Of a stretch of DNA of 64,000 bases, positions 45,406 to 60,554 are shown piece after piece. This stretch comes from Rhodospirillaceae bacterium. GTDB taxonomy: Bacteria > Pseudomonadota > Alphaproteobacteria > Rhodospirillales > UBA2165. A program made the translations under genes and the position numbers. Under the pieces are notes generated by a model that had not been told where the DNA came from, made no database searches, and saw only the letters and a program-made list of their open reading frames with translations. The DNA is taken from NCBI GenBank assembly GCA_018674495.1, contig JABHAA010000043.1:21615-85614 (forward strand), given 5' to 3'. How positions within the stretch are numbered: position 1 is the stretch's first letter; each line of letters begins with the position of its first letter.

Positions 45406-46560
45406 TCAAGGCCATAGCTCGGACGAGGCCAGGGCCGCGCCTTCGGCCAAGGTTTCCAGCTTTGCCCACATAACGGTGGGGTGCACCCGCTGATAACCTT
45501 CGGCCTGGGCAAAGCCGCAATCGGTTCCGGCGATCACGTTTTCTCGGCCCACCAGGCCGGCAAAGCGAACGATGCGATCGGCCACCAGACGCGGATGCTC
45601 GACGGTGATGGTGTGGTGCGAGACAACGCCGGGGATCAGGATCTTGCCGTCCGGCAGCTTGGTATCCTGCCACACCCGCCATTCATGTTCGTGACGCGCA
45701 TTGGCCGCCTCGATGGAATAGGCGCCGGCATTGACCCGTAAGATCAGATCAATGATCGCCTCCAACGGCGCATCGGCGGTGTGCGGAATGTGCCAGCTTC
45801 CGAAACAGACATGGTAGCGGACCCGGTCTTCGGGAATGCCCTTAAGGGCGTGGTTGAGGGCTTCAACGCGCAGCTCCGCCCATTCCCGATATCGTTCCGG
45901 GCTCTGCTGAACCAGATGGTCGTACATGTTGGCGAGCACGGCATCGTCCACCTGCACCAGCAATCCGGCGGCGTGGATGGCCGCATATTCCTTACCCAGC
46001 GCCTCGGCGATGGCGTAGATATAATCATGCTCGTTCTGGTAATGCTCATCGACGCCGTCATAGGCGGTACTGGCCGGCGCGACGGCGGTGATGAAGGCTT
46101 CGGCCACATCGTTCCCGGCAAGCGCCGCTTTCAGGTTTTCGCAATCGCGCTCAATGGCGCCGGCGCCGGTGTAGGTGATGGCACCGATGCAGGCCTCGGT
46201 CGGGCGCCCTTCGACGGCGCTCGGCATCTCCTGCAATATGGCTTCGCGGAAGCGGTCCATGTCGCGGCCCATCCATTCCACGGGGCGCAATTGGTCCGGG
46301 CGGCGCTCCCAACCGGTCATACGGTCCAGCACATAGGCGGCCCAGCTCGACTTGCCGTATTCGCCGTCATTGACGATGTCGATGCCGGCTTCGGTCTGTT
46401 TTTTCACCACCTCGGCGGTGGCGCTTTGCAGCATCGCCGCATAGCTTGCCTGCGATTGCGCATCGCCGGTTCGCGCCGCTTCGCCGGCGGCCAGCAATTC
46501 GGCGGGCCGGATCAGGCTGCCCACATGGGTTGTCAAAATACGCTCGGTGCTTCGTTTCAT
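45406..46560 (-). CDS. Cobalamin-independent methionine synthase (MetE C-terminal domain)-like methyltransferase family protein
   Basis: I moved the start to the ATG at 46560 (MKRSTERILTTHVGSLIRP...). It is a single-domain protein of about 384 aa with HVCFGSW and a GTDCGF-type C-terminal motif. Confidence 0.7.
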   Translation of the reverse strand: MKRSTERILTTHVGSLIRPAELLAAGEAARTGDAQSQASYAAMLQSATAEVVKKQTEAGIDIVNDGEYGKSSWAAYVLDRMTGWERRPDQLRPVEWMGRDMDRFREAILQEMPSAVEGRPTEACIGAITYTGAGAIERDCENLKAALAGNDVAEAFITAVAPASTAYDGVDEHYQNEHDYIYAIAEALGKEYAAIHAAGLLVQVDDAVLANMYDHLVQQSPERYREWAELRVEALNHALKGIPEDRVRYHVCFGSWHIPHTADAPLEAIIDLILRVNAGAYSIEAANARHEHEWRVWQDTKLPDGKILIPGVVSHHTITVEHPRLVADRIVRFAGLVGRENVIAGTDCGFAQAEGYQRVHPTVMWAKLETLAEGAALASSELWP

Positions 46561-46693
46561 GGCTGTGATCTCCTTTGTTCCCTTTGCGCCGAACCTAGCG
46601 CAATCGATCCGGCTGGCCAAACAGAGCGCCGCCGGTTGCTTGGCTGGGCCTCCTGGTCCATGGTCAGGCGATACCGAATCCCGGAGCCGCACA

Positions 46694-47524
46694 ATGCAGA
46701 TTTCACCGCTTGATCCCTTCGGCGCCGAAATCACCGGCATCGATCTGGCTGGCGACGTCGATATCACAGCGATTCAGGATGCCTGGTACGCCCATCAGGT
46801 TCTGGTGTTCCGGGATCAATCGCTCAGCCAGGACGATCAGCTTCGCTTTACCAGCCGGCTCGGGCCCATGGGCATATCGCGCAACACGATCACCGACGCA
46901 GGGCCGAGCGGCGAAGCGACCCAGCCTGGCATCATGTGGGTCACAAATCTTCGCCGCGGCGACGGCAGCGCCTACGGCCAGCCGCACGGGGGCGAGATGT
47001 GGTTCCATTCCGACATGTGTTATGCGGAAAAGCCCTATACGGCGACCATCCTTTATGCCATCGAGTTGCCGGCCTTGGGCGGCGCCACCCGCTTTGCCGA
47101 TATGTACGGCGCCTATGAGGCCCTGCCCGGCGAGACAAAGCAAAGGATCGAAGGCAAAAGCGTCGTCCAGGTGCACGAATATCACCGGCTGGAACGCCCG
47201 TCGCCTGAGGCTGAGCGCCCCGATGCCTTGCAGTTCGCGCACCCGGCGGTGATCGTGCATCCCGAAACCGGGCGCAAAGCCTTGTTCGTCAACCGGCTGA
47301 TGTCGGCAAGCGTGGTCGGCATGGAGGCGGACGAAAGCGAAGCTCTGCTGGAAGAATTGTTCGACCGCTCCGAGGACCCGGCCAAGATATTGAGCCACAA
47401 TTGGCGCCCCGGCGATCTGGTGATGTGGGACAACCGCTGCACCATTCATGGCCGCGCCGATTTCCCCGAAACCGCACGCCGCATTTTGCGCCGCACCACG
47501 GTGATCGGCGAGCGCCCGTCGTAG
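46694..47524 (+). CDS. TauD/TfdA-family Fe(II)/2-oxoglutarate dioxygenase (paralogue 3 of 3)
   Basis: I moved the start to the ATG at 46694 (MQISPLDPFGAEITGIDLAG...). Motifs are MWFHSDMCY, GGATRFADM and VMWDNRCTIHGRA. Confidence 0.85.
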   Translation: MQISPLDPFGAEITGIDLAGDVDITAIQDAWYAHQVLVFRDQSLSQDDQLRFTSRLGPMGISRNTITDAGPSGEATQPGIMWVTNLRRGDGSAYGQPHGGEMWFHSDMCYAEKPYTATILYAIELPALGGATRFADMYGAYEALPGETKQRIEGKSVVQVHEYHRLERPSPEAERPDALQFAHPAVIVHPETGRKALFVNRLMSASVVGMEADESEALLEELFDRSEDPAKILSHNWRPGDLVMWDNRCTIHGRADFPETARRILRRTTVIGERPS

Positions 47525-47625
47525 TCAAGCGCCCCTTGTGCGCCCCCGAAAGCGATAGTTTGCTTGACGTATTCGCTGCATTAATGATGTCATCGCCGTT
47601 AACAGGGCAATCCATATAAGGGGGC

Positions 47626-48702
47626 ATGGCGATGGGTGAGATACTTGGTATCGGAACGACGCATTATCCAGGCCTGACCGGCACTGACGAGGGATTAAGC
47701 TCGGTCTGGCAGCGTATTATCAATGCCCCGCTGATCGGTGAAAAATGGAAAGACAAGGCCAACTGGCCCGCCGGCATGATCGACGAGATCGGCGACGATA
47801 TGGGCCTGGCCTCGGCCGCCGCCTACCGGGAGCGAATGTGGGACAACTTTCGCAAGCAGCGCAAAATGATCGACGAGTTTGATCCCGACTTTATCGTTAT
47901 CATCGCCGATGATCAGTATGAGAACTTCAAAGAAGACATCATCCCGCCGTTTTGCGTCTATGGCCTCGACGATGATTTCGAGCAAGAAGTCTGGGGCCAC
48001 GGCTTTGCCGCCACCAAGGACAATTACTGGGGCGAGCCCCACGATCTGAAGATGGACTTCCATGGCCACCGGGAGGGCGCCAAATATATCACCGCCGGAT
48101 TGCTGACGCGCGGCGTCGCCATGCCGTATGCCTACCGGTTGCTGCATTCGCCGATATTGGCGCACGGCTTCAATTACTCGGTGCTCTATCTCGATCTCGA
48201 CCGCCGGGGCTTCCCCTATCCGATCATTCCGCTGCATGTAAACTGTTATGGCTCATCGGTGATCACCGCCGGCGGCGCCTTCCAACACCTGTTCGAGAAG
48301 CCCGAGCAAAACGGCCTGCCCGATCCGCCCGGCCCTAACCCTGCCCTTTGTTACGAAGTCGGCGCCAATTTGGCCGAGGCTTTGGCGGAGAGCCCCTATC
48401 GTTCGGTGATCATGGCATCGTCGAGCTGGTCCCATTGTTTCTTGTCCACCAATACCGGCTACGTGATCCCGGATTTCGAAAGTGACCGCATGATGCTGGA
48501 AGCGCTGACCGACGGCGACTATGAAACCTGGCGCGGGCGCACAATGGAAGAGGTCGAGGCCGCCGGCCACCATGAATTGCTGAACTGGCATGTGCTGGCC
48601 GGCGCTATGGACAAGCTGGACCGCAAGCCGATGATCGCCGACTATGTAGAAACCTTCATCTTCCAGTCCGACAAATGCTTCGCCGCCTTCCCGCCCAATT
48701 GA
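47626..48702 (+). CDS. Class III extradiol ring-cleavage dioxygenase (LigB)-family protein
   Basis: 358 aa with ILGIGTTHYPGL and FDPDFIVIIADDQYENFKEDIIPPFCVY, which fit the LigB-family pattern. The assignment is by pattern recall only. Confidence 0.6.
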   Translation: MAMGEILGIGTTHYPGLTGTDEGLSSVWQRIINAPLIGEKWKDKANWPAGMIDEIGDDMGLASAAAYRERMWDNFRKQRKMIDEFDPDFIVIIADDQYENFKEDIIPPFCVYGLDDDFEQEVWGHGFAATKDNYWGEPHDLKMDFHGHREGAKYITAGLLTRGVAMPYAYRLLHSPILAHGFNYSVLYLDLDRRGFPYPIIPLHVNCYGSSVITAGGAFQHLFEKPEQNGLPDPPGPNPALCYEVGANLAEALAESPYRSVIMASSSWSHCFLSTNTGYVIPDFESDRMMLEALTDGDYETWRGRTMEEVEAAGHHELLNWHVLAGAMDKLDRKPMIADYVETFIFQSDKCFAAFPPN

Positions 48703-49253: not shown

Positions 49254-49796
49254 ATGCCATATTTGAAATCAAAAGCCGGGACTTTGGTGATGGGCGTAAG
49301 CCTGTTCGCCCTCGCCGCCTGCGAGGAGCCCAAGGTTGAGGCCGCCATATTCGAAAACATTCAGCAATGCATTTCCAATGGCGATGCGAACCCGGAACAA
49401 TGCGAGCGAAACTTCCGTGAAGCCAAAAGCCAGCACGCCGCCGTCGCACCGAAATATGCAAACGAGGCCGATTGCCAGGCTGACTTCGGCGCCGGCAAAT
49501 GCGAAAAAGCACCTTATAGAACGGCGGGCGGCGGCTCGGTCTTCATGCCCTTGATGGCCGGCTACATGATGGGCTCCATGCTCTCAGGCAGGAGTTTCAT
49601 GTCGCCGCAGCCCTTGTACCGTTCGGCCTCCAGCCCCGGCACCTTCCGCACCGCCGACAATCGCAGCGCCGGCACCAGAACCGGGCGCACCCAGGTGGCG
49701 CGCACAGCCACGTCGCGCCCATCTGTCAAAACGGCAACCCGGTCGCGCGGCGGCTTCGGCTCATCCGGGCGGCGGTTCGGATCGGGCGCCACGTAA
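49254..49796 (+). CDS. DUF1190 (YjfM-like) lipoprotein
   Basis: It has a lipobox LFALAAC, Cys-containing segments (QQCISNGDANPEQCERNF, ADCQADFGAGKCE) and a Gly/Ser/Arg-rich tail. Confidence 0.7.
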   Translation: MPYLKSKAGTLVMGVSLFALAACEEPKVEAAIFENIQQCISNGDANPEQCERNFREAKSQHAAVAPKYANEADCQADFGAGKCEKAPYRTAGGGSVFMPLMAGYMMGSMLSGRSFMSPQPLYRSASSPGTFRTADNRSAGTRTGRTQVARTATSRPSVKTATRSRGGFGSSGRRFGSGAT

Positions 49797-49815: not shown

Positions 49816-50976
49816 ATGCAGCGCATTTCGGTTAGCGAACGGTCCGGCCTGGCCGCCGCAGCAGCTGAGCACGGTTTCGAATATGCCGCCAGCGAAGGCG
49901 TCACCGGCTGGGACGAAAGCGGCTACTACCAATTCACTATGGCCCAAATCCAAGATAATTTGGCGGCCCCGGCGGAAGAGCTGGAAGGCTTTTGCTTTGA
50001 ATTGGTCGAGCGCGCGGTCAATGACCAGGCGATCTTGGAGCGCTTAGGCATTGCCGAGCCGTTCTGGGACTATCTGGCCCAAAGCTGGCGGGATGGCGAT
50101 AAAAACCTCACTGGCAGGATGGATCTATCTTACGACGGCACCGGACCGGCGAAGCTTTTGGAATACAATGCCGACACGCCGACGGCGCTGTATGAGACGG
50201 CGGTGTTCCAATGGGAATGGCTGGAACAGGCCGCCGAAGAAGGATTGATCCCGGAAAATTGCGATCAGTTCAACGATGTCCATGAGGCCATTGTTCAGAG
50301 CTTTGCCGCGATGAGTATCGAAGGGATAGCCCACTTCGCCTGCAACACGGATATCGAAGACGATAAGGGCACCCTCGAATATCTGGAAGAGTGTGCCAAG
50401 GAGGCCGGGCTCAAGACGCACCTCTTGGCCATGAACGATATCGGCCTCGATGACTGGGGGAAATTCACCGACACCGAAGAGGATGTGATCACCACCTTGG
50501 TCAAATTGTATCCCTGGGAATGGATCATGGACGAGGAGTTTGGATTAAAAGTACCGGCCAGCCGCGTTCGCTTTATCGAGCCGCCATGGAAAGCCATCCT
50601 TTCCAACAAGGGCATGCTGGCACTGCTCTGGGAAATGTTCGAGGGGCACCCCAATCTTTTGCCGACCTTTTTCGAAGGCGATGCGGGCGCGGATGCACTG
50701 GCCGGCACCTATGTGCGCAAACCCTTGCTGGGGCGGCAAGGAGCGAATATTCAGATGTACCGGGACGGTGCATTGCAAGGCTCAAGCGATGGCCCCTATG
50801 GTGATGGCGGCCAAATCGTTCAGGGATGCGCACCCCTGCCCGATTGCGGCGGCAGATATCCGCTGCTCGGCCTTTGGCTGATCGCCAGCAAGGCCGCCGG
50901 ATTGTGTATCCGTGAAGGCCAGTCCTTGATCACCGGCCCCGATGCCCGAACGGTCCCGCACGTAATTCTGGATTGA
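49816..50976 (+). CDS. Glutathionylspermidine synthase-like ATP-grasp amide ligase (YjfC/YgiC family)
   Basis: 386 aa with GRMDLSYDGTGPAKLLEYNADTPTALYE, YPWEWI, PPWKAILSNKGMLALLWE and RKPLLGRQGANI. Confidence 0.85.
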   Translation: MQRISVSERSGLAAAAAEHGFEYAASEGVTGWDESGYYQFTMAQIQDNLAAPAEELEGFCFELVERAVNDQAILERLGIAEPFWDYLAQSWRDGDKNLTGRMDLSYDGTGPAKLLEYNADTPTALYETAVFQWEWLEQAAEEGLIPENCDQFNDVHEAIVQSFAAMSIEGIAHFACNTDIEDDKGTLEYLEECAKEAGLKTHLLAMNDIGLDDWGKFTDTEEDVITTLVKLYPWEWIMDEEFGLKVPASRVRFIEPPWKAILSNKGMLALLWEMFEGHPNLLPTFFEGDAGADALAGTYVRKPLLGRQGANIQMYRDGALQGSSDGPYGDGGQIVQGCAPLPDCGGRYPLLGLWLIASKAAGLCIREGQSLITGPDARTVPHVILD

Positions 50977-51059
50977 TGAAGCCGTTAAGTCCTTTTCCCA
51001 GGCTTGCCGACGGCATTCCCCAAGGCCATAATCACTTTCAATAAAAGGGAGGAACCGAT

Positions 51060-51980
51060 TTGCTCGATCCGGTCGAACTATTTCCGGAAGTGCCCAACAT
51101 CTATGCGTTTCCAAGCGTCCATGCCGACATGGTTTTCGACAAGTCCCGCGTCGCGGCCTATCGGGATGCGATCAATGAAACCGTCAAACCAGGGGATGTG
51201 GTTGCCGACCTCGGATCCGGAACCGGGCTCTTAAGCTTTCTCTGCCTCCAAGCTGGCGCGGCTCGTGTTCATGCCATAGAACGCAGCGACGTGATCGAAT
51301 GGTCGAAAGAACTGGCCGATAAAAACGGCTTTTCAGACCGCATGGAATTTCACAAGAAGGACGCCCGCGACGAAAGTCTGGAGCTCGGCGAAAAAGTCGA
51401 TGTCATCGTCAGCGAATTGATGGGGCATGTGGCCTTCGAAGAGGGTATGGCGGAAACCATTTGTGTCGCAAAGGAGCGATTTCTGAAACCAGGCGGTGCG
51501 ACTATCCCACAGACGGTGACCTTGCGGGCGGCACTTGTTCATGCGGATGAGCTTTATCGTAATTATATCGATTCATGGAACGTGGTCGAAGGCATCGATT
51601 ATTCGGCTATGCGGGAAAAAGCGGTTCAAAGCGCCTATGTTGTCGACATTCATGCCGACCAAATTTTATCCGACAGTCAGATTATTTCGGTCGAGGCGTT
51701 CTTGTCCAACCCACGAGATACCTACGACACATTCTCATTTACATCCTGGCGAACTGGCTCGATCAACGGCCTAGCGTTTTGGTTTGATGCCGACCTTACA
51801 GACCGAATTCGCTTGTCCAGCGGACCTAGGACCTACACCCATTGGCAGCAATGTTTTATACCATTTGAAAAACACATTAAAGTTTCAGCCAAACATAATA
51901 TTCAGGTTTTGATTGAAATGAAGTATCGCAAATCTTTTGATCAAAAATTCGAATTCAAAATTTCGAAAATTGATGCTTAA
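51060..51980 (+). CDS. Protein arginine N-methyltransferase (PRMT)-like class I SAM methyltransferase
   Basis: 306 aa with the PRMT signature set: HADMVFDKSRVAAYRDAI, motif I VADLGSGTGLLS, AIERS, double-E loop SELMGHVAFEEGM and THW loop YTHWQQCFIPF. It has a TTG start. Confidence 0.8.
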   Translation: MLDPVELFPEVPNIYAFPSVHADMVFDKSRVAAYRDAINETVKPGDVVADLGSGTGLLSFLCLQAGAARVHAIERSDVIEWSKELADKNGFSDRMEFHKKDARDESLELGEKVDVIVSELMGHVAFEEGMAETICVAKERFLKPGGATIPQTVTLRAALVHADELYRNYIDSWNVVEGIDYSAMREKAVQSAYVVDIHADQILSDSQIISVEAFLSNPRDTYDTFSFTSWRTGSINGLAFWFDADLTDRIRLSSGPRTYTHWQQCFIPFEKHIKVSAKHNIQVLIEMKYRKSFDQKFEFKISKIDA

Positions 51981-52015
51981 AAACGATCATTAAACTTCGT
52001 ATAGCTCTCAATAAT

Positions 52016-53722
52016 ATGAACCAAGAACCAGACATACCAATAAAAGAGGCCGAAGAGACTAAGGATCGTCGGACTCCTTCGGAGCCTGGACCCAACGATA
52101 CGGTTATAATGTTTGTGGATATTGCTGGCGCATCAGAAGTATCAAATCATATGTCCGTGGAAAAATATTACAAAAAATTTCTTAAAAAATTTAGCCAGCT
52201 ATTTATTCAAACGTGCAAGGAATTTTATAAGAATATACCTAAATCGATAATCGTCGATGAGGAGACGAAATGGTCTGCAAGAGGTGACGAAGGGATACTA
52301 TTTTTTTTCCCGGTCTATAAAGGTGAATGGAGCGATCAAGAGTATTATGAATCAAAAAACAGAGGACTCGCGACGTGCGTCGATACAGCGATCCACATAG
52401 GACTTGCCTTAAAGCGCAAGTGGCTTCTTTCAGAGGAAAATTCAGCTCGAATTGCCCAAGGAATAATGCCTATCGATTTGGGTGTCGGAATTCACGTTGG
52501 CAAAACTTGGATAACGATTGAAAACGGCGAATATCAACCTGAAGGCTATGCGATTAATCTTGGTAAGCGGGTGGAAAGCCATTCTCGGAACGGACGCTAT
52601 TCACGAATATTTGTCAGTGAGGCTGCGCATGCCGTGCTCGAATATCTGGCTGACGAAAGAACCTATACTTTCGACGAGGCAACATCGGTAGACGCAAAAG
52701 GATTTTCTCGAGAGGTTCGCGCGTTTGAAGTACAACATCATTTCCTCCCGACCGATTGGACAGACTATGTTTTATCTTTGGTAGATACGACACAACCATC
52801 TGACGGTATAGAACAAGATCAGCGCGACAAACGGACAAGACTTGCAAATCTATATACACCCGTTCCGACACAAAACGTCACGGAGGATGTCCAGTTTTCG
52901 ACAGATAAAGAGTTCGATAGGTATTTGAGCCTCACAAAGGAGGCGCGAGCGATAAACCCAACAAATATTTGGCTTTCTGAACAACTGATCAAGGCTGATA
53001 TGGTTTCAGACCTATACCATTTGGCCAAGATCAATGGAAAAGTGCGTGATCGATCAGATATTGAAAAGGACCTAGAAACTAAGTCAGAAATGGGAACCAA
53101 ATATCAAACTGCATTTGAAGTTGCTTCTTATCTTTCGCAGAGCGACTTGAGAGATGCTGGTGTTTTGATGATTCAGGGTCTTATAGAAGGTGAACGTCTC
53201 GATTTCGATGGAGAGCAACGTAGGTACAGGCGCGCACAAAATTTTTCAGATCAAATTGCTCGCTTGGCATGGTACAGGGGTTATTCATGCGCTCAGCAAG
53301 CCTACAACATATTTGATTGGGAAAAGGTCAATAAAGAGACCCGTGACATTACTAATAATTTCGACAGCCGCCAATTGGACTACTGCATTAAATTCGTGAG
53401 AGATGATATTGAGTTAATTGCCGACAAGGAGGCCCTCAAAATAAATCTTTGCGAATGGATAAAAAACGCCAGAGACTTTCTGACATCATCTGTGGAATTG
53501 TCCCCATTTTCGGCTTGGCCAAAGCAAGCATTGGGAATCGAACTTATTATGTGGACCAGCGACCAAACGGCAGAGGGGATGGAAGAGATAGAATATGGCA
53601 AAGAGCTAATTAAAGCTGCTTGTGAAATCTTGCCCGATGTAAAGCTGTTTCTAACCGAGCATAAATACATCGAAAAAATATCGGATGAGGAATGGGTTCA
53701 AGATATATTGTCCAATGAATAA
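52016..53722 (+). CDS. Divergent class III nucleotidyl cyclase-like domain fused to an approximately 320-aa helical domain of unknown family
   Basis: 568 aa. Segments that align to the cyclase homology domain are VIMFVDIAGASEVS, ARGDEGILFFF, GVGIHVGKTWI, GYAINLGKRVESHS, RIFVSEAAHAVL and KGFSREVRAFEV. This is the lowest-G+C gene of the window. Confidence 0.6.
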   Translation: MNQEPDIPIKEAEETKDRRTPSEPGPNDTVIMFVDIAGASEVSNHMSVEKYYKKFLKKFSQLFIQTCKEFYKNIPKSIIVDEETKWSARGDEGILFFFPVYKGEWSDQEYYESKNRGLATCVDTAIHIGLALKRKWLLSEENSARIAQGIMPIDLGVGIHVGKTWITIENGEYQPEGYAINLGKRVESHSRNGRYSRIFVSEAAHAVLEYLADERTYTFDEATSVDAKGFSREVRAFEVQHHFLPTDWTDYVLSLVDTTQPSDGIEQDQRDKRTRLANLYTPVPTQNVTEDVQFSTDKEFDRYLSLTKEARAINPTNIWLSEQLIKADMVSDLYHLAKINGKVRDRSDIEKDLETKSEMGTKYQTAFEVASYLSQSDLRDAGVLMIQGLIEGERLDFDGEQRRYRRAQNFSDQIARLAWYRGYSCAQQAYNIFDWEKVNKETRDITNNFDSRQLDYCIKFVRDDIELIADKEALKINLCEWIKNARDFLTSSVELSPFSAWPKQALGIELIMWTSDQTAEGMEEIEYGKELIKAACEILPDVKLFLTEHKYIEKISDEEWVQDILSNE

Positions 53723-54869
53723 ACTTCTTAGTCCAAACTTCATCTATGACGAACGCCAGCTAGAGCATTCTAATGCTCGCGTACTCGCCTTAGTATCTGA
53801 AAGCGGCTGCAAGGTCTTGTATTCCCCGAAGGCATGTACCGTTCCAGGCGTTTTGAAAAACCTCGCAAATCATATGGACGGATTCTCTTGCTCGTCATTA
53901 TTCGAAGTGCATCTGGTTCAGGAAGTGGTCAAGCATAGCGGTGCCATCCATTTGACTACGCCGGGCATTTTGGCATATCAAATCGATGAGATTATTGAGG
54001 CCTGTGACACCGTCGTTCTGAACAGCCTTTCCCAATGGCTTCGGTTTCGAGAAGAACTTAAAGGTACCGTCGATCTCGGTCTTCGCATCAATCCCCAATT
54101 ATCATTTGCCGAGGACCCCAGGTACGACCCTTGCCGAGAATATTCCAAATTGGGCGTACCGCTGGACCAGTTGGCAGACCAGTTCAGTAATTCGCCACAA
54201 ACATTTGTCGGACTAAACGGTCTCCATTTCCACAACAACTGTGATTCCACCGACCCGGCCGCGCTGGCGGCGACGGTCGATAAAATCATTGCCGCAATCC
54301 CAAGCCTCCTAAATCAAGTTAGTTGGATCAATCTTGGCGGTGGATATTTGCTCGATGAATTCGAGGAGCCTGATATATTTACAGGCACGGTCCAGCGCCT
54401 AACCACCGAATACGACCTAGATGTCATCATCGAGCCGGGCGCAGCATTGGTCCGAACCGCCGGCTCCATCGTTTCCTCCGTCATCGATTTGTTCGAAAGC
54501 GACGGCATTACCGTGGCGGTACTCGATACCACCGTGAACCATATGCCCGAAGTTCTTGAATACGAGTTTGTCCCGGATGTCCTGGGGCACGTGGACGGCG
54601 GTAAATATTCCTACCTGTTGGCCGGGTGTACCTGTCTCGCCGGAGACCAGTTTGGTATTTCATCCTTCGACGCGCCCATTGAAATCGGATCGACAATTAC
54701 CTTCCCCAACACGGGCGCCTATACCATCTCCCGCGCCAATACGTTTAATGGCGTGAATTTGCCATCGATTTACCGCCGGGATATGTCGGGCAATCTCATC
54801 CTTGAAAAAGAACATACGTTCGAAGAATTCGCGGCGCGGGCGGGGGTGGTTTCTAATGTTCGTGTCTGA
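53715..54869 (+). CDS. Carboxynorspermidine/carboxyspermidine decarboxylase (NspC/CANSDC) family PLP enzyme
   Basis: I moved the start to the ATG at 53715, which overlaps the upstream stop by 8 nt (ATGAATAA). Motifs are VLYSPKAC, VVLNSLSQWLRF, GLRINPQ, YDPCREYSKLG, GLHFHNNC, INLGGGY, IEPGAAL, LDTTVNHMPEVLEY, GCTCLAGD and NTFNGVNLPSIY. Confidence 0.85.
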   Translation: MNKLLSPNFIYDERQLEHSNARVLALVSESGCKVLYSPKACTVPGVLKNLANHMDGFSCSSLFEVHLVQEVVKHSGAIHLTTPGILAYQIDEIIEACDTVVLNSLSQWLRFREELKGTVDLGLRINPQLSFAEDPRYDPCREYSKLGVPLDQLADQFSNSPQTFVGLNGLHFHNNCDSTDPAALAATVDKIIAAIPSLLNQVSWINLGGGYLLDEFEEPDIFTGTVQRLTTEYDLDVIIEPGAALVRTAGSIVSSVIDLFESDGITVAVLDTTVNHMPEVLEYEFVPDVLGHVDGGKYSYLLAGCTCLAGDQFGISSFDAPIEIGSTITFPNTGAYTISRANTFNGVNLPSIYRRDMSGNLILEKEHTFEEFAARAGVVSNVRV

Positions 54870-56226
54870 ACAGAGTTTTTCTCTGCCCGCCCAGCAAGGC
54901 CAGAGCGATTTGATCGATTATTTCCGCCAGGCGTGCCGCTTTCGTTTGGACAAGGGGAGCGTTCCAATCCGTTTCGCGGTTACCGCCTCGGATGCCCAAG
55001 AATATAAGTGCGAAATTGGCGCGGCTGAAGACGTAAATTCGGCGACGGCTTTGAACGAAAATTCGATCTTTGATTTTCGCCGCCGCGAGACAGAAGACAC
55101 CAGCTCGTTCAACGCGGTCTTTCTGGTGCCAACGGGCATCGGCGCTGAAATCGGCGGGCATGCCGGCGATGCGACACCGGTGGCGCGTATGCTGGCGCAA
55201 TCCTGCGATGAATTGATTTTGCACCCCAACGCGGTAAATGCTTCCGATATAAATGAAGCACCGGAGAATTCCCTTTATCTGGAAGGCAGCGTCATCACCC
55301 GCCTGATGATGGGCAGCATTGGTCTGCAACGGGTGCGGTCGAACAGATTGCTCGTGGTCATTGATGGCGATCACGAAGATATATTTGTGAATGCCACGCT
55401 AAATTCGGTGGATGCCGCCAGGGCCTGTTATGGGGTTCATATCGTCGATGTGCTGAAAATGATTCCCCCCGTTCGCTTGGCCGGTGCGTTCTCGGAAGCG
55501 GGCCGCGCGGCTGGCACTGTCGAAAATTTAGACTACTTATTCGAAGTACTGGCGGAGCGGCGCCAGGACTATGATGCCGTCGCGATTGCATCCATCATTG
55601 ATATTCCAGATGGATCGGTGCTTGAGTATTTTGCCAGCGATGGCACGGAGGTAAATCCCTGGGGCGGCGTGGAAGCCATGCTGACCCATGCCATATCGGC
55701 GGAATATGATGTGCCGTCCGCACATGCGCCCATGATGGAAGGCCAAGATATTGCCAATGCCGATCTCGGTCAGGTTGATCCGCGCATGGCCGCCGAAGCT
55801 GTGTCCATGACATTCCTGAATTGTGTTATGAAGGGGCTTCAGAAAAGCCCTAAAATTATTTCGGATGCCAGCCTGTTTAATCGCCCGGAAATATTCACGG
55901 CTTCGAATGTTTCTTGTCTGGTGATCCCCGAGGGTTGCCTGGGTCTGCCAACCTTGGCCGCGTTGGAACAGGGAATTCCTGTCATTGCCGTAAAGGAAAA
56001 CCGCAACCTGATGCGCAACGAATTGGCCGCGCTACCATGGAAACCAGGCCAGTATTTTGAGGCCGAGAGCTATCTGGAGGCCTCCGGCGTTATAAACGCG
56101 CTGAAGGCCGGCATCGAGATAGGAACCCTAAGACGGCCACTCGGCCAAACAAAACCACAAATTGTGAGTAGAGAGCGTCAGGAAACGATCCCTCGCCCCG
56201 GCGACGGGAAAACCAATATCGGGTAG
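54856..56226 (+). CDS. DUF3326-like protein of unknown function
   Basis: I moved the start to the ATG at 54856, which overlaps the NspC-like gene by 14 nt. The motif VFLVPTGIGAEIGGHAGDATPVARMLA...LILHPNAVNAS matches my recollection of the DUF3326 family. There are no TM segments. Confidence 0.55.
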   Translation: MFVSEQSFSLPAQQGQSDLIDYFRQACRFRLDKGSVPIRFAVTASDAQEYKCEIGAAEDVNSATALNENSIFDFRRRETEDTSSFNAVFLVPTGIGAEIGGHAGDATPVARMLAQSCDELILHPNAVNASDINEAPENSLYLEGSVITRLMMGSIGLQRVRSNRLLVVIDGDHEDIFVNATLNSVDAARACYGVHIVDVLKMIPPVRLAGAFSEAGRAAGTVENLDYLFEVLAERRQDYDAVAIASIIDIPDGSVLEYFASDGTEVNPWGGVEAMLTHAISAEYDVPSAHAPMMEGQDIANADLGQVDPRMAAEAVSMTFLNCVMKGLQKSPKIISDASLFNRPEIFTASNVSCLVIPEGCLGLPTLAALEQGIPVIAVKENRNLMRNELAALPWKPGQYFEAESYLEASGVINALKAGIEIGTLRRPLGQTKPQIVSRERQETIPRPGDGKTNIG

Positions 56227-56249
56227 AGCCTCCTCGAAACCTCCTCACT

Positions 56250-56269
56250 AAATACAGAAAACTGTATTT
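56250..56269 (+). terminator. AT-rich hairpin after the DUF3326-like gene (possible operon end)
   Basis: AAATACAG-AAAA-CTGTATTT forms a perfect 8-bp stem 24 nt after the stop. The stem is weak and there is no long T run. Confidence 0.3.
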
Positions 56270-56320
56270 GCGAATATCGCCCAGCCCGACTACACTGGTG
56301 GCCAGGCAATGGAGGGGGAT

Positions 56321-56776
56321 ATGCGCCGCGCAATCAAAACCATCGGCATCTTGTTTTTGGGCGTCATTCTTTCGGGCTGCACCGTTGGGATGCCCTACAA
56401 CAGAATCAAGGCGGACCTGCCGAAACTGTCCGCCGGCAAAAGCCGGGTCTTTGTCTATCGGACATTCATTGTGCCCGAGCTTATGCATCCACGGGTGGTC
56501 CTGATTGACGGCAAGCCTTTCGGCGATGCCTTGACCGGCACTGCAAGTTACCGGGACGTGGCGCCGGGCGCCCATGAGTTCTCCATCGCCGACCGTCATT
56601 CCAAATTGAAGGTGCAATTGCAGCCTGGCAAGGTGACCTTTTTGCGCATCACCATTGTTACCGCCAAGGACAGCGGCATCGATACGATCATCAAAGTTAT
56701 TCCGAGCAATAAAGCCGAAGCGGATTTGCATGGCATCAATGTGATCGAAGCCAAGGTCCGCGATCTGGTGAAATAA
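56321..56776 (+). CDS. DUF2846-like lipoprotein
   Basis: I moved the start to the ATG at 56321, which has a GGAGGGGG ribosome-binding site. It has a lipobox FLGVILSGC, then RVFVYR and VLIDGKPFG. Confidence 0.7.
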   Translation: MRRAIKTIGILFLGVILSGCTVGMPYNRIKADLPKLSAGKSRVFVYRTFIVPELMHPRVVLIDGKPFGDALTGTASYRDVAPGAHEFSIADRHSKLKVQLQPGKVTFLRITIVTAKDSGIDTIIKVIPSNKAEADLHGINVIEAKVRDLVK

Positions 56777-56809
56777 CATGCTCGAGCAGTATCACTTCAC
56801 CAATTTCGT

Positions 56810-57553
56810 TCATCGCAATATCAACGCAAGTCCGATCGCAACCAGCGACCATTGCGCGACCATGCTGTAAATTTTTTGCGAGGCGATTTCGAACAGCCGA
56901 GTGCCCGCCCAAGTTCCAATCATTGTCCCTGGTATGAGAACCGCGGCGCGAATAAATGTCTCGGCGCTGATACCGTTGCCGGCCAAGAGTGTAATGATCA
57001 ATATGATGCCCATCATCGAAGCGGTGACGGCAATGTTTGCCCTTTGCACCGCCACCGATTCCGGAGATGCGAGATAATAGAACACCATCAGAGGACCTCC
57101 ACTACCCGTAAACCCGTACACGCTGCCGGCTACGGCACCAACGGCGGCGGACGCGACCACGTTTCGGGGACCGGTGTACCGCCATCCCAAAATGAGGGCG
57201 AGACCGCACGCTGCTATTAATGCGCCAATAGCCGGTTTGACGGTCGAAGCATCTGCGACCAGCAAGGCCATTGCTGTAAGCGGTACGGTGACAACAACCG
57301 CAATGCAGAGGGGGATGGTTTCCGACCACTTGATATGATCGTACGTCTTTCGAAGCAGCATCGCCGAGGAGACGAGGCCGAGCACAGCCGAAATAGCGAT
57401 CGCTTCGAGCGGTCCATAGACAAACGTCAACAACGCGGCGTTGACCAATCCCGCAACAAAGCCGGTAAATCCCCGGGCAATGCCAGCTAGAATGACGATA
57501 AAATATGCGACGGCGAGGTCCGCAGATATGACGTGGATCAGAGCGTCTTGCAT
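56810..57553 (-). CDS. TauE/SafE-family (sulfite exporter-like) membrane protein
   Basis: 247 aa, about 7-8 TM segments, with a glycine-rich TauE-like pattern (GFTGSGGPLMVFY). Confidence 0.8.
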   Translation of the reverse strand: MQDALIHVISADLAVAYFIVILAGIARGFTGFVAGLVNAALLTFVYGPLEAIAISAVLGLVSSAMLLRKTYDHIKWSETIPLCIAVVVTVPLTAMALLVADASTVKPAIGALIAACGLALILGWRYTGPRNVVASAAVGAVAGSVYGFTGSGGPLMVFYYLASPESVAVQRANIAVTASMMGIILIITLLAGNGISAETFIRAAVLIPGTMIGTWAGTRLFEIASQKIYSMVAQWSLVAIGLALILR

Positions 57554-57756
57554 CGCATATTCTCTGACTAGGAAATCAATGGGAAGGTAATTTTGCGCCT
57601 AGCCTACTATCGGGAATGGATGTCCAAAAATGTCAGTGATGGCAAGGAATTTCATTGGGCTGAGGCGTCTCGCATGCCGCGCCGCTTGCCGTTTCGCGAA
57701 AACCTATTAAATTTGTGGGCAACAGAGACGAAGCCCCGCCCAAGGAGAGGTACGCC

Positions 57757-59337
57757 ATGAACGATCATACGGTCACGCTGGATACATCCACGTCTCCCGC
57801 CGGAATTACCTACGCCGATAATTTCAACGTGGCGGTGGCGTTCATCGACCGCCATATCAGCGAAGGCCGTGCTGACCGGGTCATCATCCGCGAACACGGC
57901 GGCGGCACGGTTACCTATGGGGAGTTGGCCGAAAATGTGGGCCGCGCCGGCAACGCGCTCACCGGCCTTGGGCTGGCCCCCGGCGAGCGTCTGCTGATGA
58001 TGGTCAAAGATGCGCCCGAATTTTTCTATGTATTTTGGGGCGCCATCAAGGCCGGCATTATCCCGGTGCCCTTGAACACGCTGCTCCGGGCCAAAGACTA
58101 CGCCTATATGATCGAAAATTCCGTTGCGGCCGGCATCGTCTATTCGGCAGAATTCGCCGGCGAAGTGGATCCGGCTATCGAAGCCGCCAAACACGCGCCG
58201 GCGCTGGTGATCGAAGCCGCCGGCGATGGCGGATTGCTCAGCAAAATGAAAGACGCCTCGCCGGAACTGGCGCCGGCGCCCGCCAAGCCGGGCGATGATT
58301 GTTTCTGGCTCTATTCGTCGGGCTCCACCGGCAATCCGAAGGGCGTTGTCCACGCCCATAAAGATATGGTGGTCACCAGCCAGTATTACGGGACGGAGAC
58401 CATCGGCCTCGGCGAGGGCGATGTGGTTTTTTCAGCGGCCAAGCTGTTCTTCGCCTACGGCCTCGGCAACGCCATGACCTTTCCATTATGGTCAGGCGCG
58501 GAGGCGGTCCTGTTCGAAGGTGCGCCGGCGCCAGACGTCGTGCACGCGGTGATCGAAGAATACAAACCCAGCGTCTATTTCGGCGTCCCCACCCTTTATG
58601 CGGCGCAAATGCGCGCCTTCGATGAGCGCAAACCCGATCTTTCCTCGGTCCGATTGTTCGTATCGGCGGGCGAGGCCTTGCCGCCGGACCTACTGCGCCG
58701 TTGGATCGATGCCACTGGCCTGCCAATCCTCGACAGCATCGGTACCACCGAAATTCTGCATATATTCCTGGCCAACCGGGAAGACGATTTCAAGCCCGGC
58801 TCCAGCGGCAAGACGGTGCCCGGCTACGAAGGGCGCATCGTCGGCGAAGACGGCAACGACGTGCCCGACGGCGAAACCGGCAGCCTGATGATCCGAGGCG
58901 ATTCGCTATTGAAGCTCTATTGGCGCAACCCGGAAAAGACCAACGAAGCGTTGCAAGACGGCTGGATGTATACCGGTGATACATATTACCGAGACGAGGA
59001 CGGATTTTTCTTCTGCTGCGGGCGCTCAGACGACATGCTTAAAGTCGGCGGCATCTGGTGCTCGCCGGTGGAGATCGAGGCGAAGTTGGTGGAGCATCCG
59101 AAAGTACTGGAAGCCGCCGTCGTTGGCCGTGCCGACAACGAAGAGCTGATCAAGCCGGAAGCCTTTATCGTGCTCAACGATGCGTCTGATGCCTCGGACG
59201 CGCTGTCAGCGGAATTGCTGGAGCATTGCAAAAGCGGATTGGCGCGCTACAAATACCCGCGCTGGTTCAATTTCGTCGATGACCTGCCAAAAACAGCGAC
59301 GGGAAAAATCCAGCGTTTCAGGCTCCGCGACGGTTAA
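57757..59337 (+). CDS. Benzoate-CoA ligase family aromatic acid-CoA ligase
   Basis: I moved the start to the ATG at 57757, which has an AAGGAGAGG ribosome-binding site. Motifs are YSSGSTGNPKGVVHAH, YTGDTYYRDEDGFFFCCGRSDDMLKVGGIWCSPVEIE and LPKTATGKIQRF. Confidence 0.85.
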   Translation: MNDHTVTLDTSTSPAGITYADNFNVAVAFIDRHISEGRADRVIIREHGGGTVTYGELAENVGRAGNALTGLGLAPGERLLMMVKDAPEFFYVFWGAIKAGIIPVPLNTLLRAKDYAYMIENSVAAGIVYSAEFAGEVDPAIEAAKHAPALVIEAAGDGGLLSKMKDASPELAPAPAKPGDDCFWLYSSGSTGNPKGVVHAHKDMVVTSQYYGTETIGLGEGDVVFSAAKLFFAYGLGNAMTFPLWSGAEAVLFEGAPAPDVVHAVIEEYKPSVYFGVPTLYAAQMRAFDERKPDLSSVRLFVSAGEALPPDLLRRWIDATGLPILDSIGTTEILHIFLANREDDFKPGSSGKTVPGYEGRIVGEDGNDVPDGETGSLMIRGDSLLKLYWRNPEKTNEALQDGWMYTGDTYYRDEDGFFFCCGRSDDMLKVGGIWCSPVEIEAKLVEHPKVLEAAVVGRADNEELIKPEAFIVLNDASDASDALSAELLEHCKSGLARYKYPRWFNFVDDLPKTATGKIQRFRLRDG

Positions 59338-59362
59338 ATATTTACGACTATTTCCTGGGACA

Positions 59363-59627
59363 AGTGACCTATTTCATCCATGTTGTACCTCTACGATCGT
59401 TTTTCCCGTTTCCTCGGTAGGAGGATGGGCGCCGGCGATGCGGCACATCGGCAAGCCCTTCCGACACCCCGAGGGAACGGGAAAAACGACCCAGAGGGCG
59501 ACGCTGCAAGGCTCCCGGTCGTTGTCGCGCGCAGCTTGTGGTGGATTGGCACCACGGCGCGGCGCGCTCCTAGCCGAAAACCTTGCAGCGCCGTCGTAGT
59601 GGCACAACATGGATGAAATAGGTCACT
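59363..59627 (+). repeat. 265-bp highly structured palindromic element closed by perfect 24-bp inverted repeats (MITE-like element or structured RNA)
   Basis: AGTGACCTATTTCATCCATGTTGT (59363..59386) is the exact reverse complement of 59604..59627. There are two internal helices. One pairs 59397..59417 with 59469..59489: 21 bp with a single pair that is U-G on the plus strand. The other pairs 59502..59511 with 59581..59590: 10 bp, perfect. The element ends 3 nt before the ATG at 59631. Confidence 0.7.
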
Positions 59628-59630
59628 AGC

Positions 59631-60554
59631 ATGCAAGAAAAATTGATGGACCTGAAGGAGGCGGTCGCCTCGCTAGTCAGTGACGGCGACAGCATCGTGC
59701 TCGGCGCGGCACTGGAAAACGCCATCCCCTTCGCCGCCACCCACGAGCTGATCCGCCAGGGCTTTACCGGTCTCAACATGATTGCGCCAATTTCCGACAT
59801 GTCCACCGACATGCTGATCGGCGCCGGCTGCTGCAACGAAATTACCGGCGCCTGGGTCGGCAACGTGTCCGCCGGGCTCGGTCATAATTACCGGCGGGCC
59901 ACCGAGAAAGGCATCCCGCACCGGGTGAAGGTCAACGATTACTCCAACTTCACCCTCGGCATGGCATTATTTGGCGGCGCCTACGGGCTGCCCTATATCG
60001 CCGTGAAGTCCCTGCTTGGATCAGACATTCCCAAGTCCAATCCACTGTTGAAAGTGACCGACAACCCGTTCACAGAAGGCGAAGACCCGGTTGTTCTGGT
60101 GCCAGCGCTGAAACCGGATGTGGCATTCCTGTCCATGCAGCGCGCCGACCGTTTCGGCAACGCCCATTATTGGGGTTCCTACGGCTTAACCCAGGAATCC
60201 TCCATCGCGGCGGAAAAAATCATCGTGCTGGCGGACGAGATTGTCGAGCCCGAAGTGATCGCGTCGGACCCCAGCCGCGTGGTTATCCCGGGCTTTGGCG
60301 TCAATGCCGTCTGCCACATTCCCGCCGCGTGCCATCCATCGCCGCTGATCGGCTGCTGGACGCGGGACAATGAATTTTTTCACGAATATCACAAGCTGAC
60401 TCGCGACCCGGAAGGCTTTGAGGCCTGGATCAAGGAGTGGGTGTTGGATATTCCCGATCACGCCGCCTACCGCGCCAAACTGGGCGAGCGGCTGGAACAG
60501 TTCCGCATCCGCGGCAAAGCGTTATCGGCGCCTGCCAACTACGCGGTAGAGTAA
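59631..60554 (+). CDS. Family I CoA-transferase subunit A (glutaconate CoA-transferase GctA-like)
   Basis: 307 aa with LKEAVASLVSDGDSIVLGAALENAIPFAA and ADRFGNAHYWG. It is followed by a subunit-B gene. Confidence 0.85.
   Translation: MQEKLMDLKEAVASLVSDGDSIVLGAALENAIPFAATHELIRQGFTGLNMIAPISDMSTDMLIGAGCCNEITGAWVGNVSAGLGHNYRRATEKGIPHRVKVNDYSNFTLGMALFGGAYGLPYIAVKSLLGSDIPKSNPLLKVTDNPFTEGEDPVVLVPALKPDVAFLSMQRADRFGNAHYWGSYGLTQESSIAAEKIIVLADEIVEPEVIASDPSRVVIPGFGVNAVCHIPAACHPSPLIGCWTRDNEFFHEYHKLTRDPEGFEAWIKEWVLDIPDHAAYRAKLGERLEQFRIRGKALSAPANYAVE

Follow-up and report, generated by a model that had tools for sequence, protein, structure and literature searches.

What might an operon do that joins a relative of the eukaryotic arginine methyltransferases to a nucleotidyl cyclase, a polyamine-type decarboxylase and a member of the DUF3326 family? 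This question is raised by a block of four plus-strand genes in a 64,000-nt stretch of contig JABHAA010000043.1 from a Rhodospirillaceae bacterium (the window; all coordinates below are positions in it). The genes encode a protein arginine methyltransferase (PRMT)-like, S-adenosylmethionine (SAM)-dependent methyltransferase of 306 aa (51060-51980), a class III nucleotidyl cyclase domain with a TPR-like tail (52016-53722), an NspC-like fold-III pyridoxal phosphate (PLP) decarboxylase of 384 aa (53715-54869), and a 456-aa protein assigned by Pfam to DUF3326 (PF11805; 54856-56226). A first-pass annotation, made from the sequence alone, had described a coupled operon of this layout, and its description was exact: all four open reading frames (ORFs) are intact, with a gap of 35 nt at the first junction and overlaps of 8 nt and 14 nt at the next two.

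Comparison with other genomes has shown that the block is one copy of a conserved, horizontally mobile cassette in which a PRMT-like gene, a class III cyclase gene with a TPR-like tail, a decarboxylase gene and a DUF3326 gene follow one another in this order. The cassette probably links cyclic-nucleotide signalling to arginine/polyamine chemistry. The explanation that we would put first, if tentatively, is that of a mobile conflict system related to Pycsar, probably directed against phages, with a guanidino/polyamine metabolic arm. This is a reading of sequences, predicted structures and gene neighbourhoods. The cassette is widespread and unstudied, and in it a bacterial enzyme related to the arginine methyltransferases of eukaryotes is tied to cyclic-nucleotide signalling.

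Recurrence of the Cassette Across Bacteria

A cyclase profile was searched against GTDB genomes and JGI metagenomes, and the loci recovered were annotated with hidden Markov models built for this analysis. The survey produced 44 cyclase lineages in cassette loci, non-redundant at 90% identity or less. Neighbours were counted only at loci with room for them, i.e., at least 900 nt upstream for the PRMT, at least 500 nt downstream for the decarboxylase and at least 2 kb downstream for DUF3326. On this basis, a PRMT gene lies upstream of the cyclase in 33 of 35 loci, a decarboxylase gene lies downstream in 28 of 32, and DUF3326 is present in 20 of 23. Hosts with names include Gammaproteobacteria, Desulfobacterales, Nitrospirae, Planctomycetota, Marinimicrobia and Bacteroidetes metagenome-assembled genomes (MAGs). 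The closest cyclase homologue (40% identity) sits on a 385-kb contig in a run of PRMT, cyclase, Orn/DAP-type decarboxylase and DUF3326 genes between insertion sequence (IS) elements. The association also holds when approached from the other side, as three PRMT homologues picked independently of the cyclase all occur in the same cassette.

The first-pass annotation would have been undone if the four families never co-localised elsewhere. They do co-localise, in the same order and in dozens of unrelated contigs, and so that objection falls away. One of its elements needs correction, however, in that the NspC-like gene is a variable component of the system. An AdoMetDC-like pyruvoyl decarboxylase fills the slot in most cassettes (21 of 28), while the other seven have an NspC-like gene. 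Clearly, the PRMT-cyclase pair is the near-constant core of the cassette, and the downstream slot is modular. The proposal that the system was undescribed agrees with the literature searched: neither work on DUF3326/PF11805 nor work on Pycsar in combination with a decarboxylase, a methyltransferase (arginine methyltransferases included), polyamines or agmatine contained a description of the cassette.

Two variants in gene order were seen. At one locus (L130:2-4554), a second PRMT-like gene follows the cyclase gene, giving PRMT, cyclase, PRMT, AdoMetDC-like and DUF3326, and at another (L037) the PRMT and cyclase genes are inverted in order.

The Methyltransferase and Cyclase Core

The first gene of the block starts at a TTG codon with a GGGAGG ribosome-binding site 7 nt upstream. 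Its product is made up of a Rossmann domain and a PRMT beta-barrel and has motif I, the double-E loop (E119 and E127) and the THW loop (H261 and W262). The protein matches the Pfam PRMT_C family (PF22528) with 63 bits and aligns over residues 15-294 with the solved PRMT1 structure 8dur (E 1.8e-36), with the double-E and THW loops in register. Had these loops failed to align, the assignment would have been in doubt; instead, the signature set reported in the first-pass annotation is complete, and G52, G54, G56, E119, E127, H261 and W262 are invariant across 34 bacterial homologues. By its sequence, therefore, the protein has every feature of a PRMT, and its candidate substrates are a protein arginine and a free guanidino compound.

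The accompanying statement that PRMTs are essentially eukaryotic was wrong. The clade to which this protein belongs has more than 600 bacterial members of about 306 aa at 50-66% identity, and an older review derives the eukaryotic PRMTs from bacterial peptide methylases of secondary-metabolite operons (PMC3417536). The core shared with the eukaryotic type I enzymes (PRMT1/3/8) and with the bacterial PRMT-like peptide methylases comprises the SAM domain, the PRMT_C beta-barrel and the double-E and THW loops. The protein differs from these in its minimal size of 306 aa and in coming from a compact bacterial clade with ties to the cyclase cassette.

The second gene encodes a cyclase domain at about residues 22-245 and an all-helical, TPR-like domain at about residues 297-568. 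The match to PF00211 is borderline, at 21.8 bits against a gathering cut-off of 21.9 that it does not reach, and it covers residues 150-231 only; many homologues do carry PF00211. Structure gives a clearer answer. The AlphaFold2 model (pLDDT 84) superimposes on the class III cyclase 3r5g with a Z-score of 19.9 and a root-mean-square deviation of 3.0 Å over 188 residues, and Foldseek returns class III cyclases at a probability of 1.0. The two metal-binding aspartates (D35 and D91) are kept in 36 and 34 of 40 cyclase homologues, respectively, and the transition-state asparagine and arginine (N181 and R185) in 40 and 39. With both the fold and the D/D/N/R set in place, the class III blocks noted in the first pass are well founded. 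At the position that specifies the purine, four residues ahead of D91, the residue varies (S/T/Q/N) where Lys or Glu would be canonical. Judging from the conserved residues and the fold match, both the cyclase and the PRMT look active.

The two core proteins may also touch one another. Prediction of a PRMT-cyclase complex gave an ipSAE of 0.41 (0.41, 0.38 and 0.41 in separate runs) against 0.00 for the best of three controls, with a contact agreement between runs of at least 73% and a partner pLDDT of at least 83. In calibration, the mark for this score was reached by 58 of 80 solved complexes and by 2 of 110 mismatched pairs; scores of 0.60 or under took in 7 of the 80 solved complexes and both of the passing mismatches. 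The result thus weakly supports the predicted contact, which is also the one pointer to a protein as the target of the PRMT-like enzyme.

A distant branch of the cyclase family, with proteins of 379 aa, was found on marine metagenome contigs (L136, L146, L149 and L150), where the cyclase gene is followed by one for a DHH/DHHA1 phosphoesterase of 328 aa. The two could form a cyclase-phosphodiesterase pair.

The Decarboxylase-DUF3326 Module

The third gene had been described as NspC-like, with a product aligning end to end with carboxy(nor)spermidine decarboxylases. The alignment stands, as the product covers positions 2-379 of the 380 in TIGR01047; its score, however, is that of a paralogue, being 270.8 bits against an equivalog cut-off of 409.05. 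The PDB structure 9eaf is matched at E 1.2e-69, with the PLP lysine of a 'PKA' motif aligned to 'QKA'. There is no other nspC-like gene near the cut-off in the genome. The usual dehydrogenase partner is missing, as the first-pass annotation had said: no saccharopine-dehydrogenase-type gene lies beside the decarboxylase gene, and the single Sacchrp_dh_C match in the genome is on another contig (C80). The likeness to the carboxy(nor)spermidine pathway (CANSDH/CASDH with NspC/CANSDC) is therefore partial. It extends to the end-to-end NspC alignment and to the position of the decarboxylase gene next to a gene that presumably makes or uses its substrate. The cassette differs in that this partner is DUF3326, rather than a saccharopine-dehydrogenase-type protein, and in that the decarboxylase slot is mostly AdoMetDC-like.

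The fourth gene is a full-length DUF3326, as first described, with 309.4 bits over positions 2-336 of the 337 in PF11805 and the gathering score passed. Its predicted model is of good quality (pLDDT 85, pTM 0.87), and a sequence search of the PDB with it found no match. Foldseek against the PDB matched a lumazine-synthase-like sub-domain only (E 9e-4, TMq 0.2), a wide VIA-align comparison gave generic flavodoxin/Rossmann-like matches over residues 160-335 with Z-scores of at most 9, and the ESM Atlas returned the protein's own family only. On the evidence of this model, DUF3326 appears to be without a specific solved relative in the PDB or the ESM Atlas, which, with generic matches of this kind, does not show that its fold is new.

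The family itself is large: homologues at 55-60% identity number at least 5,000 in different phyla, and members occur in cyanobacteria as well. In all 20 DUF3326 loci examined, a decarboxylase gene, either AdoMetDC-like or NspC-like, lies directly upstream, so the two genes can be treated as a unit, and this unit also exists as a stand-alone, very conserved module. The alternative to the NspC-like partner is an AdoMet_dc-fold protein (PF02675) of 123-150 aa. Such partners (L009-L018, L028, L032 and L037-L039) share a highly conserved stretch, AVQFILTSSIVIHTL, and their expected self-processing site reads Thr/Ser-Ser, where Glu-Ser is usual. Given this difference, they may not be true SAM decarboxylases.

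The sole functional data found for DUF3326 come from Caballeronia leaf symbionts. There, pavA, with an NspC-like domain, and pavB, a DUF3326 gene, are both required for N-(5-aminopentyl)pentane-1,5-diamine, the backbone of pavettamine (bioRxiv 10.64898/2026.06.12.731819). The pavABC genes and the window have in common an NspC-like decarboxylase gene adjacent to DUF3326, overlapping by 14 nt in the window. They differ in that the pav decarboxylase bears a Rieske domain and is accompanied by a JmjC hydroxylase, PavC, neither of which was found by Pfam in the four proteins or their neighbours. For pavABC, moreover, no cyclase or PRMT-like gene is described, and its reaction was not reconstituted in the preprint. 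Together, the rule of a decarboxylase before DUF3326 and the genetics of pavettamine point to a non-canonical route to polyamine-type amines, and the cassette now provides a testable functional context for DUF3326.

History of the Site

How did the cassette come to this locus? The genes directly upstream belong to a native plus-strand pair, encoding DUF1190 (49254-49796) and a glutathionylspermidine (GSP)-synthetase-like ATP-grasp ligase (49816-50976). Up to 50977, the window can be aligned collinearly with a genome of the same genus (G001) at 86% nucleotide identity, and homology returns at 56771-56809; between those points G001 has only an AdoMetDC-like gene and DUF3326. The block that breaks collinearity in this nucleotide comparison accordingly spans 50977-56770. 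The arrangement in G001 is a common one in the family. DUF3326 was found in 12 of 40 relatives searched, and at 10 of these 12 loci DUF1190 is followed by the ligase, an AdoMetDC-like or NspC-like decarboxylase and DUF3326, with neither PRMT nor cyclase. At the remaining two, the sequence retrieved breaks off immediately upstream of the decarboxylase gene.

Trees of the two module proteins give a different ancestry for the copies in the window. The DUF3326 of the window falls together with the copy from a Gammaproteobacteria MAG that bears the cassette (99/99), outside the clade of its own family, and its NspC-like protein groups with cassette-borne copies (99/99), apart from the family's ligase-linked NspCs. 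This is why we take a block of the cassette lineage to have replaced the resident module, and the locus has thereby been shown to be a replacement of a resident AdoMetDC-like gene and DUF3326 behind DUF1190 and the GSP-synthetase-like gene. The first-pass view of horizontal acquisition holds insofar as third-position composition is foreign and synteny breaks at 50977; it fails insofar as a replacement, or mosaic, is not the simple insertion of four genes.

The composition of the block fits this history. In 500-nt windows, GC is 0.41-0.46 across 51500-54000 and about 0.56-0.64 around it, and GC at third codon positions (GC3) is 0.53 in the PRMT gene, 0.41 in the cyclase gene (the lowest in the block), 0.57 in the NspC-like gene and 0.60 in DUF3326, against 0.69-0.76 in the flanking genes. 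Since both measures are low relative to the flanks, the collapse of GC that had been noted from a few lines of sequence is real. The lowest values run from the 3′ half of the first gene through the second and into the 5′ part of the third, with a milder drop over the fourth, and the dip includes a low-GC core at 51600-54000 with values of 0.34-0.47 in 200-nt windows. No direct or inverted repeats were found flanking the block, and no integration mechanism is inferred for that reason.

The low-GC core is also the stretch that has been exchanged in a close relative (L162). At the same site, this relative has 81% nucleotide identity to the window over NspC and DUF3326 and 90% over the 5′ end of the PRMT gene. 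Its PRMT, however, is cut to 129 aa by an internal deletion (L162:297-2073 and L163, both ENA contigs; equivalent to 51060-53722 in the window), and its cyclase has been replaced by an unrelated 389-aa protein at 41.6% GC that lacks a Pfam or PADLOC match. The newcomer has a transmembrane (TM) segment at the N-terminus, a coiled-coil middle and further TM segments at the C-terminus. The relative has thus since lost its cyclase, and with one gene truncated and the next swapped, the core can be seen as a slot of fast turnover.

Could the four genes have come together by accident? On such an account, a PRMT-cyclase pair landed between the GSP-synthetase-like gene and a resident NspC and DUF3326, and the genes form no functional unit. 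The relatives with a decarboxylase and DUF3326 at the site but no PRMT or cyclase, the centring of the GC dip on the PRMT 3′ end and the cyclase, and the retention of NspC and DUF3326 without a cyclase in L162 would all be expected. Yet the four-gene order recurs in dozens of contigs that lack the GSP-synthetase-like gene, the NspC-like and DUF3326 proteins of the window group with cassette-borne copies and not with the resident ones of the family, and start/stop overlaps join genes 2 and 3 as well as genes 3 and 4. Chance juxtaposition is already contradicted by the recurrence data and scarcely credible.

The site bears on a second puzzle as well. DUF1190 and a GSP-synthetase-like ATP-grasp protein are the two families of the YgiB/YgiC- and YjfC-type pairs of E. 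coli, and both lie directly upstream in the window and in its relatives. The family of the window differs in adding a decarboxylase and DUF3326, and only the lineage of the window adds the PRMT and cyclase too. There are hints here that the substrate of DUF1190-linked ATP-grasp ligases is the amine from the DUF3326 module, and the cassette may therefore reveal the missing substrate of YgiC/YjfC-type ligases. Relatives in which DUF1190 and the ligase stand directly before the decarboxylase and DUF3326 include L009-L011, L013-L015 and L017-L019.

Partner Exchange and Genomic Surroundings

If the PRMT and cyclase form the core, what occupies the slot behind them may indicate what the cassette does. 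In two loci (L021 and L022), DUF3326 is followed by PycTM (PF18967), and the PycTM of L021 matches the PADLOC PycTM model at E 7e-33. In a third (L088), PycTM stands alone in the slot after the cyclase, replacing the amine module. Two others (L103 and L108) have an arginase-family enzyme (188-192 bits) in place of the decarboxylase and DUF3326. Among the distant cyclases of the family, one is paired with PycTM (L040) and another is followed by the pyruvoyl arginine decarboxylase PvlArgDC (L043). Two themes therefore recur in cassette loci, namely Pycsar-type signalling and arginine/polyamine enzymes, and the PycTM and arginase-family swaps suggest that arginine/polyamine metabolism is a possible output or input of a Pycsar-like system.

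The flanks of the cassettes often hold Mrr_cat with TPR, Mrr_cat with nSTAND3 and a HinfI restriction-modification pair. They also include PLDc_2, Lipase_3, PIN, AAA_15/21, toxin-antitoxin, PsyrTA-like and Schlafen-like genes, integrases and transposases, and one cassette lies in a prophage-like region of a bacterial contig. The first-pass annotation had raised a link to nucleotide signalling or to defence, which the PycTM genes inside the operons of sister cassettes and these defence-island flanks now back.

The known system that the cassette most resembles is Pycsar, made up of a PycC cyclase and a PycTM or PycTIR effector. Both place a class III-type cyclase in a small mobile operon, and sister cassettes share with Pycsar the two-TM effector PycTM directly downstream and flanks that look like defence islands. 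The cassette differs in having a cyclase outside the PADLOC PycC models and with a TPR-like tail, and Pycsar has no counterpart to its invariant PRMT-like partner or to its decarboxylase-DUF3326 module. An adjacent effector is part of L021, L022 and L088 and not of the window. By analogy, then, the cassette would work most like Pycsar, but the copy in the window appears to fall outside the class, having no effector and a cyclase that the PADLOC models do not recognise as PycC.

Several observations weigh against a Pycsar-related conflict system. The PADLOC PycC models do not match the cyclase of the window and give only 14 bits for a homologue. Most cassettes stop at DUF3326 with no effector gene, and some are flanked by housekeeping genes. 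There is no effector of a known type in the window, where the gene after DUF3326 encodes a DUF2846 lipoprotein, and PF18967 was not found in the genome from which the window comes (95.7% complete). A cyclase profile scan of IMG/VR viral contigs found no copy of the cassette. No domain binding cyclic nucleotide monophosphates (cNMPs) was seen in the decarboxylase or DUF3326, and given this and the generic matches of DUF3326, how a cNMP would act on the two is unexplained. Moreover, the retention of NspC and DUF3326 by L162 after loss of its cyclase implies that this half works, or at least persists, alone.

Such observations raise another account, in which the operon is purely metabolic or regulatory and makes a methylated guanidino- or polyamine-type small molecule, with no role in phage defence. 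The PRMT-like enzyme would methylate a free guanidino group, the decarboxylase and DUF3326 would build the amine backbone, and the cyclase with its TPR-like domain would be no more than a local cNMP regulator or metabolite sensor; in the genome of the window, the product would be the substrate of the adjacent GSP-synthetase-like ligase. All of the partners except PycTM are indeed of the arginine/polyamine type (AdoMetDC-like, NspC-like, arginase family and PvlArgDC), and the module is tied to the ATP-grasp ligase in 11 loci of relatives and to pavettamine backbone synthesis. Bacterial relatives of the PRMTs have been reported in secondary-metabolite operons (PMC3417536). Some cassettes have housekeeping or amino-acid-metabolism neighbours, and most have no effector that can be recognised. 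What such an account leaves out is PycTM, a family of abortive-infection effectors, which stands in the operon of three lineages and takes the place of the amine module in L088. Nor would it predict that cassettes so often lie amid restriction-modification, Mrr, PLD and toxin-antitoxin clusters, IS elements and a prophage, or that they are patchy in distribution with fast turnover even inside a genus. A purely metabolic operon is, on this balance, somewhat unlikely.

A further idea is that the cyclase-fold protein itself joins the chemistry of the other enzymes, and that together they produce or modify a nucleotide-derived messenger of an unconventional kind or an antiviral nucleoside. A nucleotide bearing an aminoalkyl or methyl-guanidino group would be one example. 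SAM-AMP, which is made by the palm domain of type III CRISPR systems, is a precedent. Three enzymes that modify small molecules are strictly co-inherited with a nucleotidyl cyclase, SAM-related folds (the AdoMetDC-like proteins and the SAM-dependent methyltransferase) accompany it, and the purine-specifying position before D91 is variable. The catalytic set, on the other hand, is that of an ordinary class III cyclase. In addition, the decarboxylase and DUF3326 occur without a cyclase in many genomes and are dispensable in L088, L103 and L108, and the Foldseek and VIA-align comparisons showed no nucleotide-binding site in DUF3326. A modified nucleotide is thus decidedly improbable.

A divergent set of loci (L024, L025, L029 and L112) has a prophage-like setting, with the cyclase, NspC-like and DUF3326 genes lying between phage structural-type genes and a serine recombinase gene. 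In these loci, the cyclase is preceded only by a PRMT-like fragment of 130 aa, and a 339-aa protein with no family match follows. Their proteins form very long branches in both the DUF3326 and the NspC trees.

PADLOC was also applied more broadly. For the four proteins of the window, the sole match was a generic methyltransferase-domain model (mad2) for the PRMT-like protein, and none was obtained for the downstream proteins tried (339 aa in L024, 369 aa in L032, HNH-TPR in L039, 389 aa in L162 and the DUF2846 lipoprotein of the window).

A Proposed Mode of Action

How might a Pycsar-related conflict system with a metabolic arm operate? The cyclase, with its complete catalytic set, would act as a dimer and make a cyclic mononucleotide upon a trigger, for which infection by a phage or an upset of the SAM/arginine pool is the likeliest candidate. 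This trigger would be registered by the TPR domain, the PRMT-like partner or both. The PRMT-like enzyme, through the guanidinium-binding double-E site, may transfer a methyl group either to an arginine within the cyclase complex or to a guanidino amine in free form. Because PavA and PavB are needed for a triamine backbone, the decarboxylase and DUF3326 could make or consume a polyamine-type amine, and as a result the output would be a change in the arginine, agmatine or polyamine pool. Where PycTM is present, collapse of the membrane would be an added output. In the genome of the window, the neighbouring ATP-grasp ligase may draw on the amine product as well.

There is also a real, if minor, chance that the cassette represents an immune or conflict system of a categorically new kind, in which a cyclic-nucleotide generator is wired to arginine/polyamine chemistry and the cyclase has a bacterial PRMT for its sensor or regulator. 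Two forms of such a system can be envisaged. In the first, the effector arm would make or deplete a guanidino/polyamine metabolite, a class not yet known as a target of defence; in the second, the PRMT-like, decarboxylase and DUF3326 enzymes would instead build a modified messenger. If true, this would provide the first functions for DUF3326 and for the bacterial PRMT clade.

Gene Boundaries, Neighbouring Genes and Occurrence

Two of the gene starts allow alternatives. The NspC-like gene has a second in-frame ATG at 53685, upstream of 53715, and the latter is favoured since the gene call of a close homologue gives 386 aa. The reading frame of DUF3326 is open from a TTG at 54802. Scans of the locus for promoters and terminators performed no better than on shuffled sequence.

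Downstream of the cassette, on the plus strand at 56309-56776, lies the gene for the DUF2846 lipoprotein (155 aa, lipobox LSGC). Its GC3 of 0.705 is host-like, and it is absent at the same site in G001. An ENA contig has a gene call for a minus-strand ORF of 229 aa at 56090-56779, which runs over the end of DUF3326 and matches no family; it was rejected because the plus-strand lipoprotein ORF inside it looks real. Farther out, genes for a TauD-family and a LigB-type dioxygenase lie upstream (46547-48702), and those for a TauE-like exporter (minus strand), an AMP-binding enzyme and a CoA-transferase lie downstream (56810-60554). No link between either group and the cassette was seen.

At least 14 marine or seawater DNA runs contain the locus, as do six metatranscriptome runs. 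Contigs identical to the window come from four metatranscriptome libraries and, in three runs, span the PRMT/cyclase and cyclase/NspC junctions; these contigs carry no strand information, and DNA carry-over into the RNA libraries is possible. Parts of the fourth gene are without cover in some of the RNA-library runs, which is not evidence of silence.

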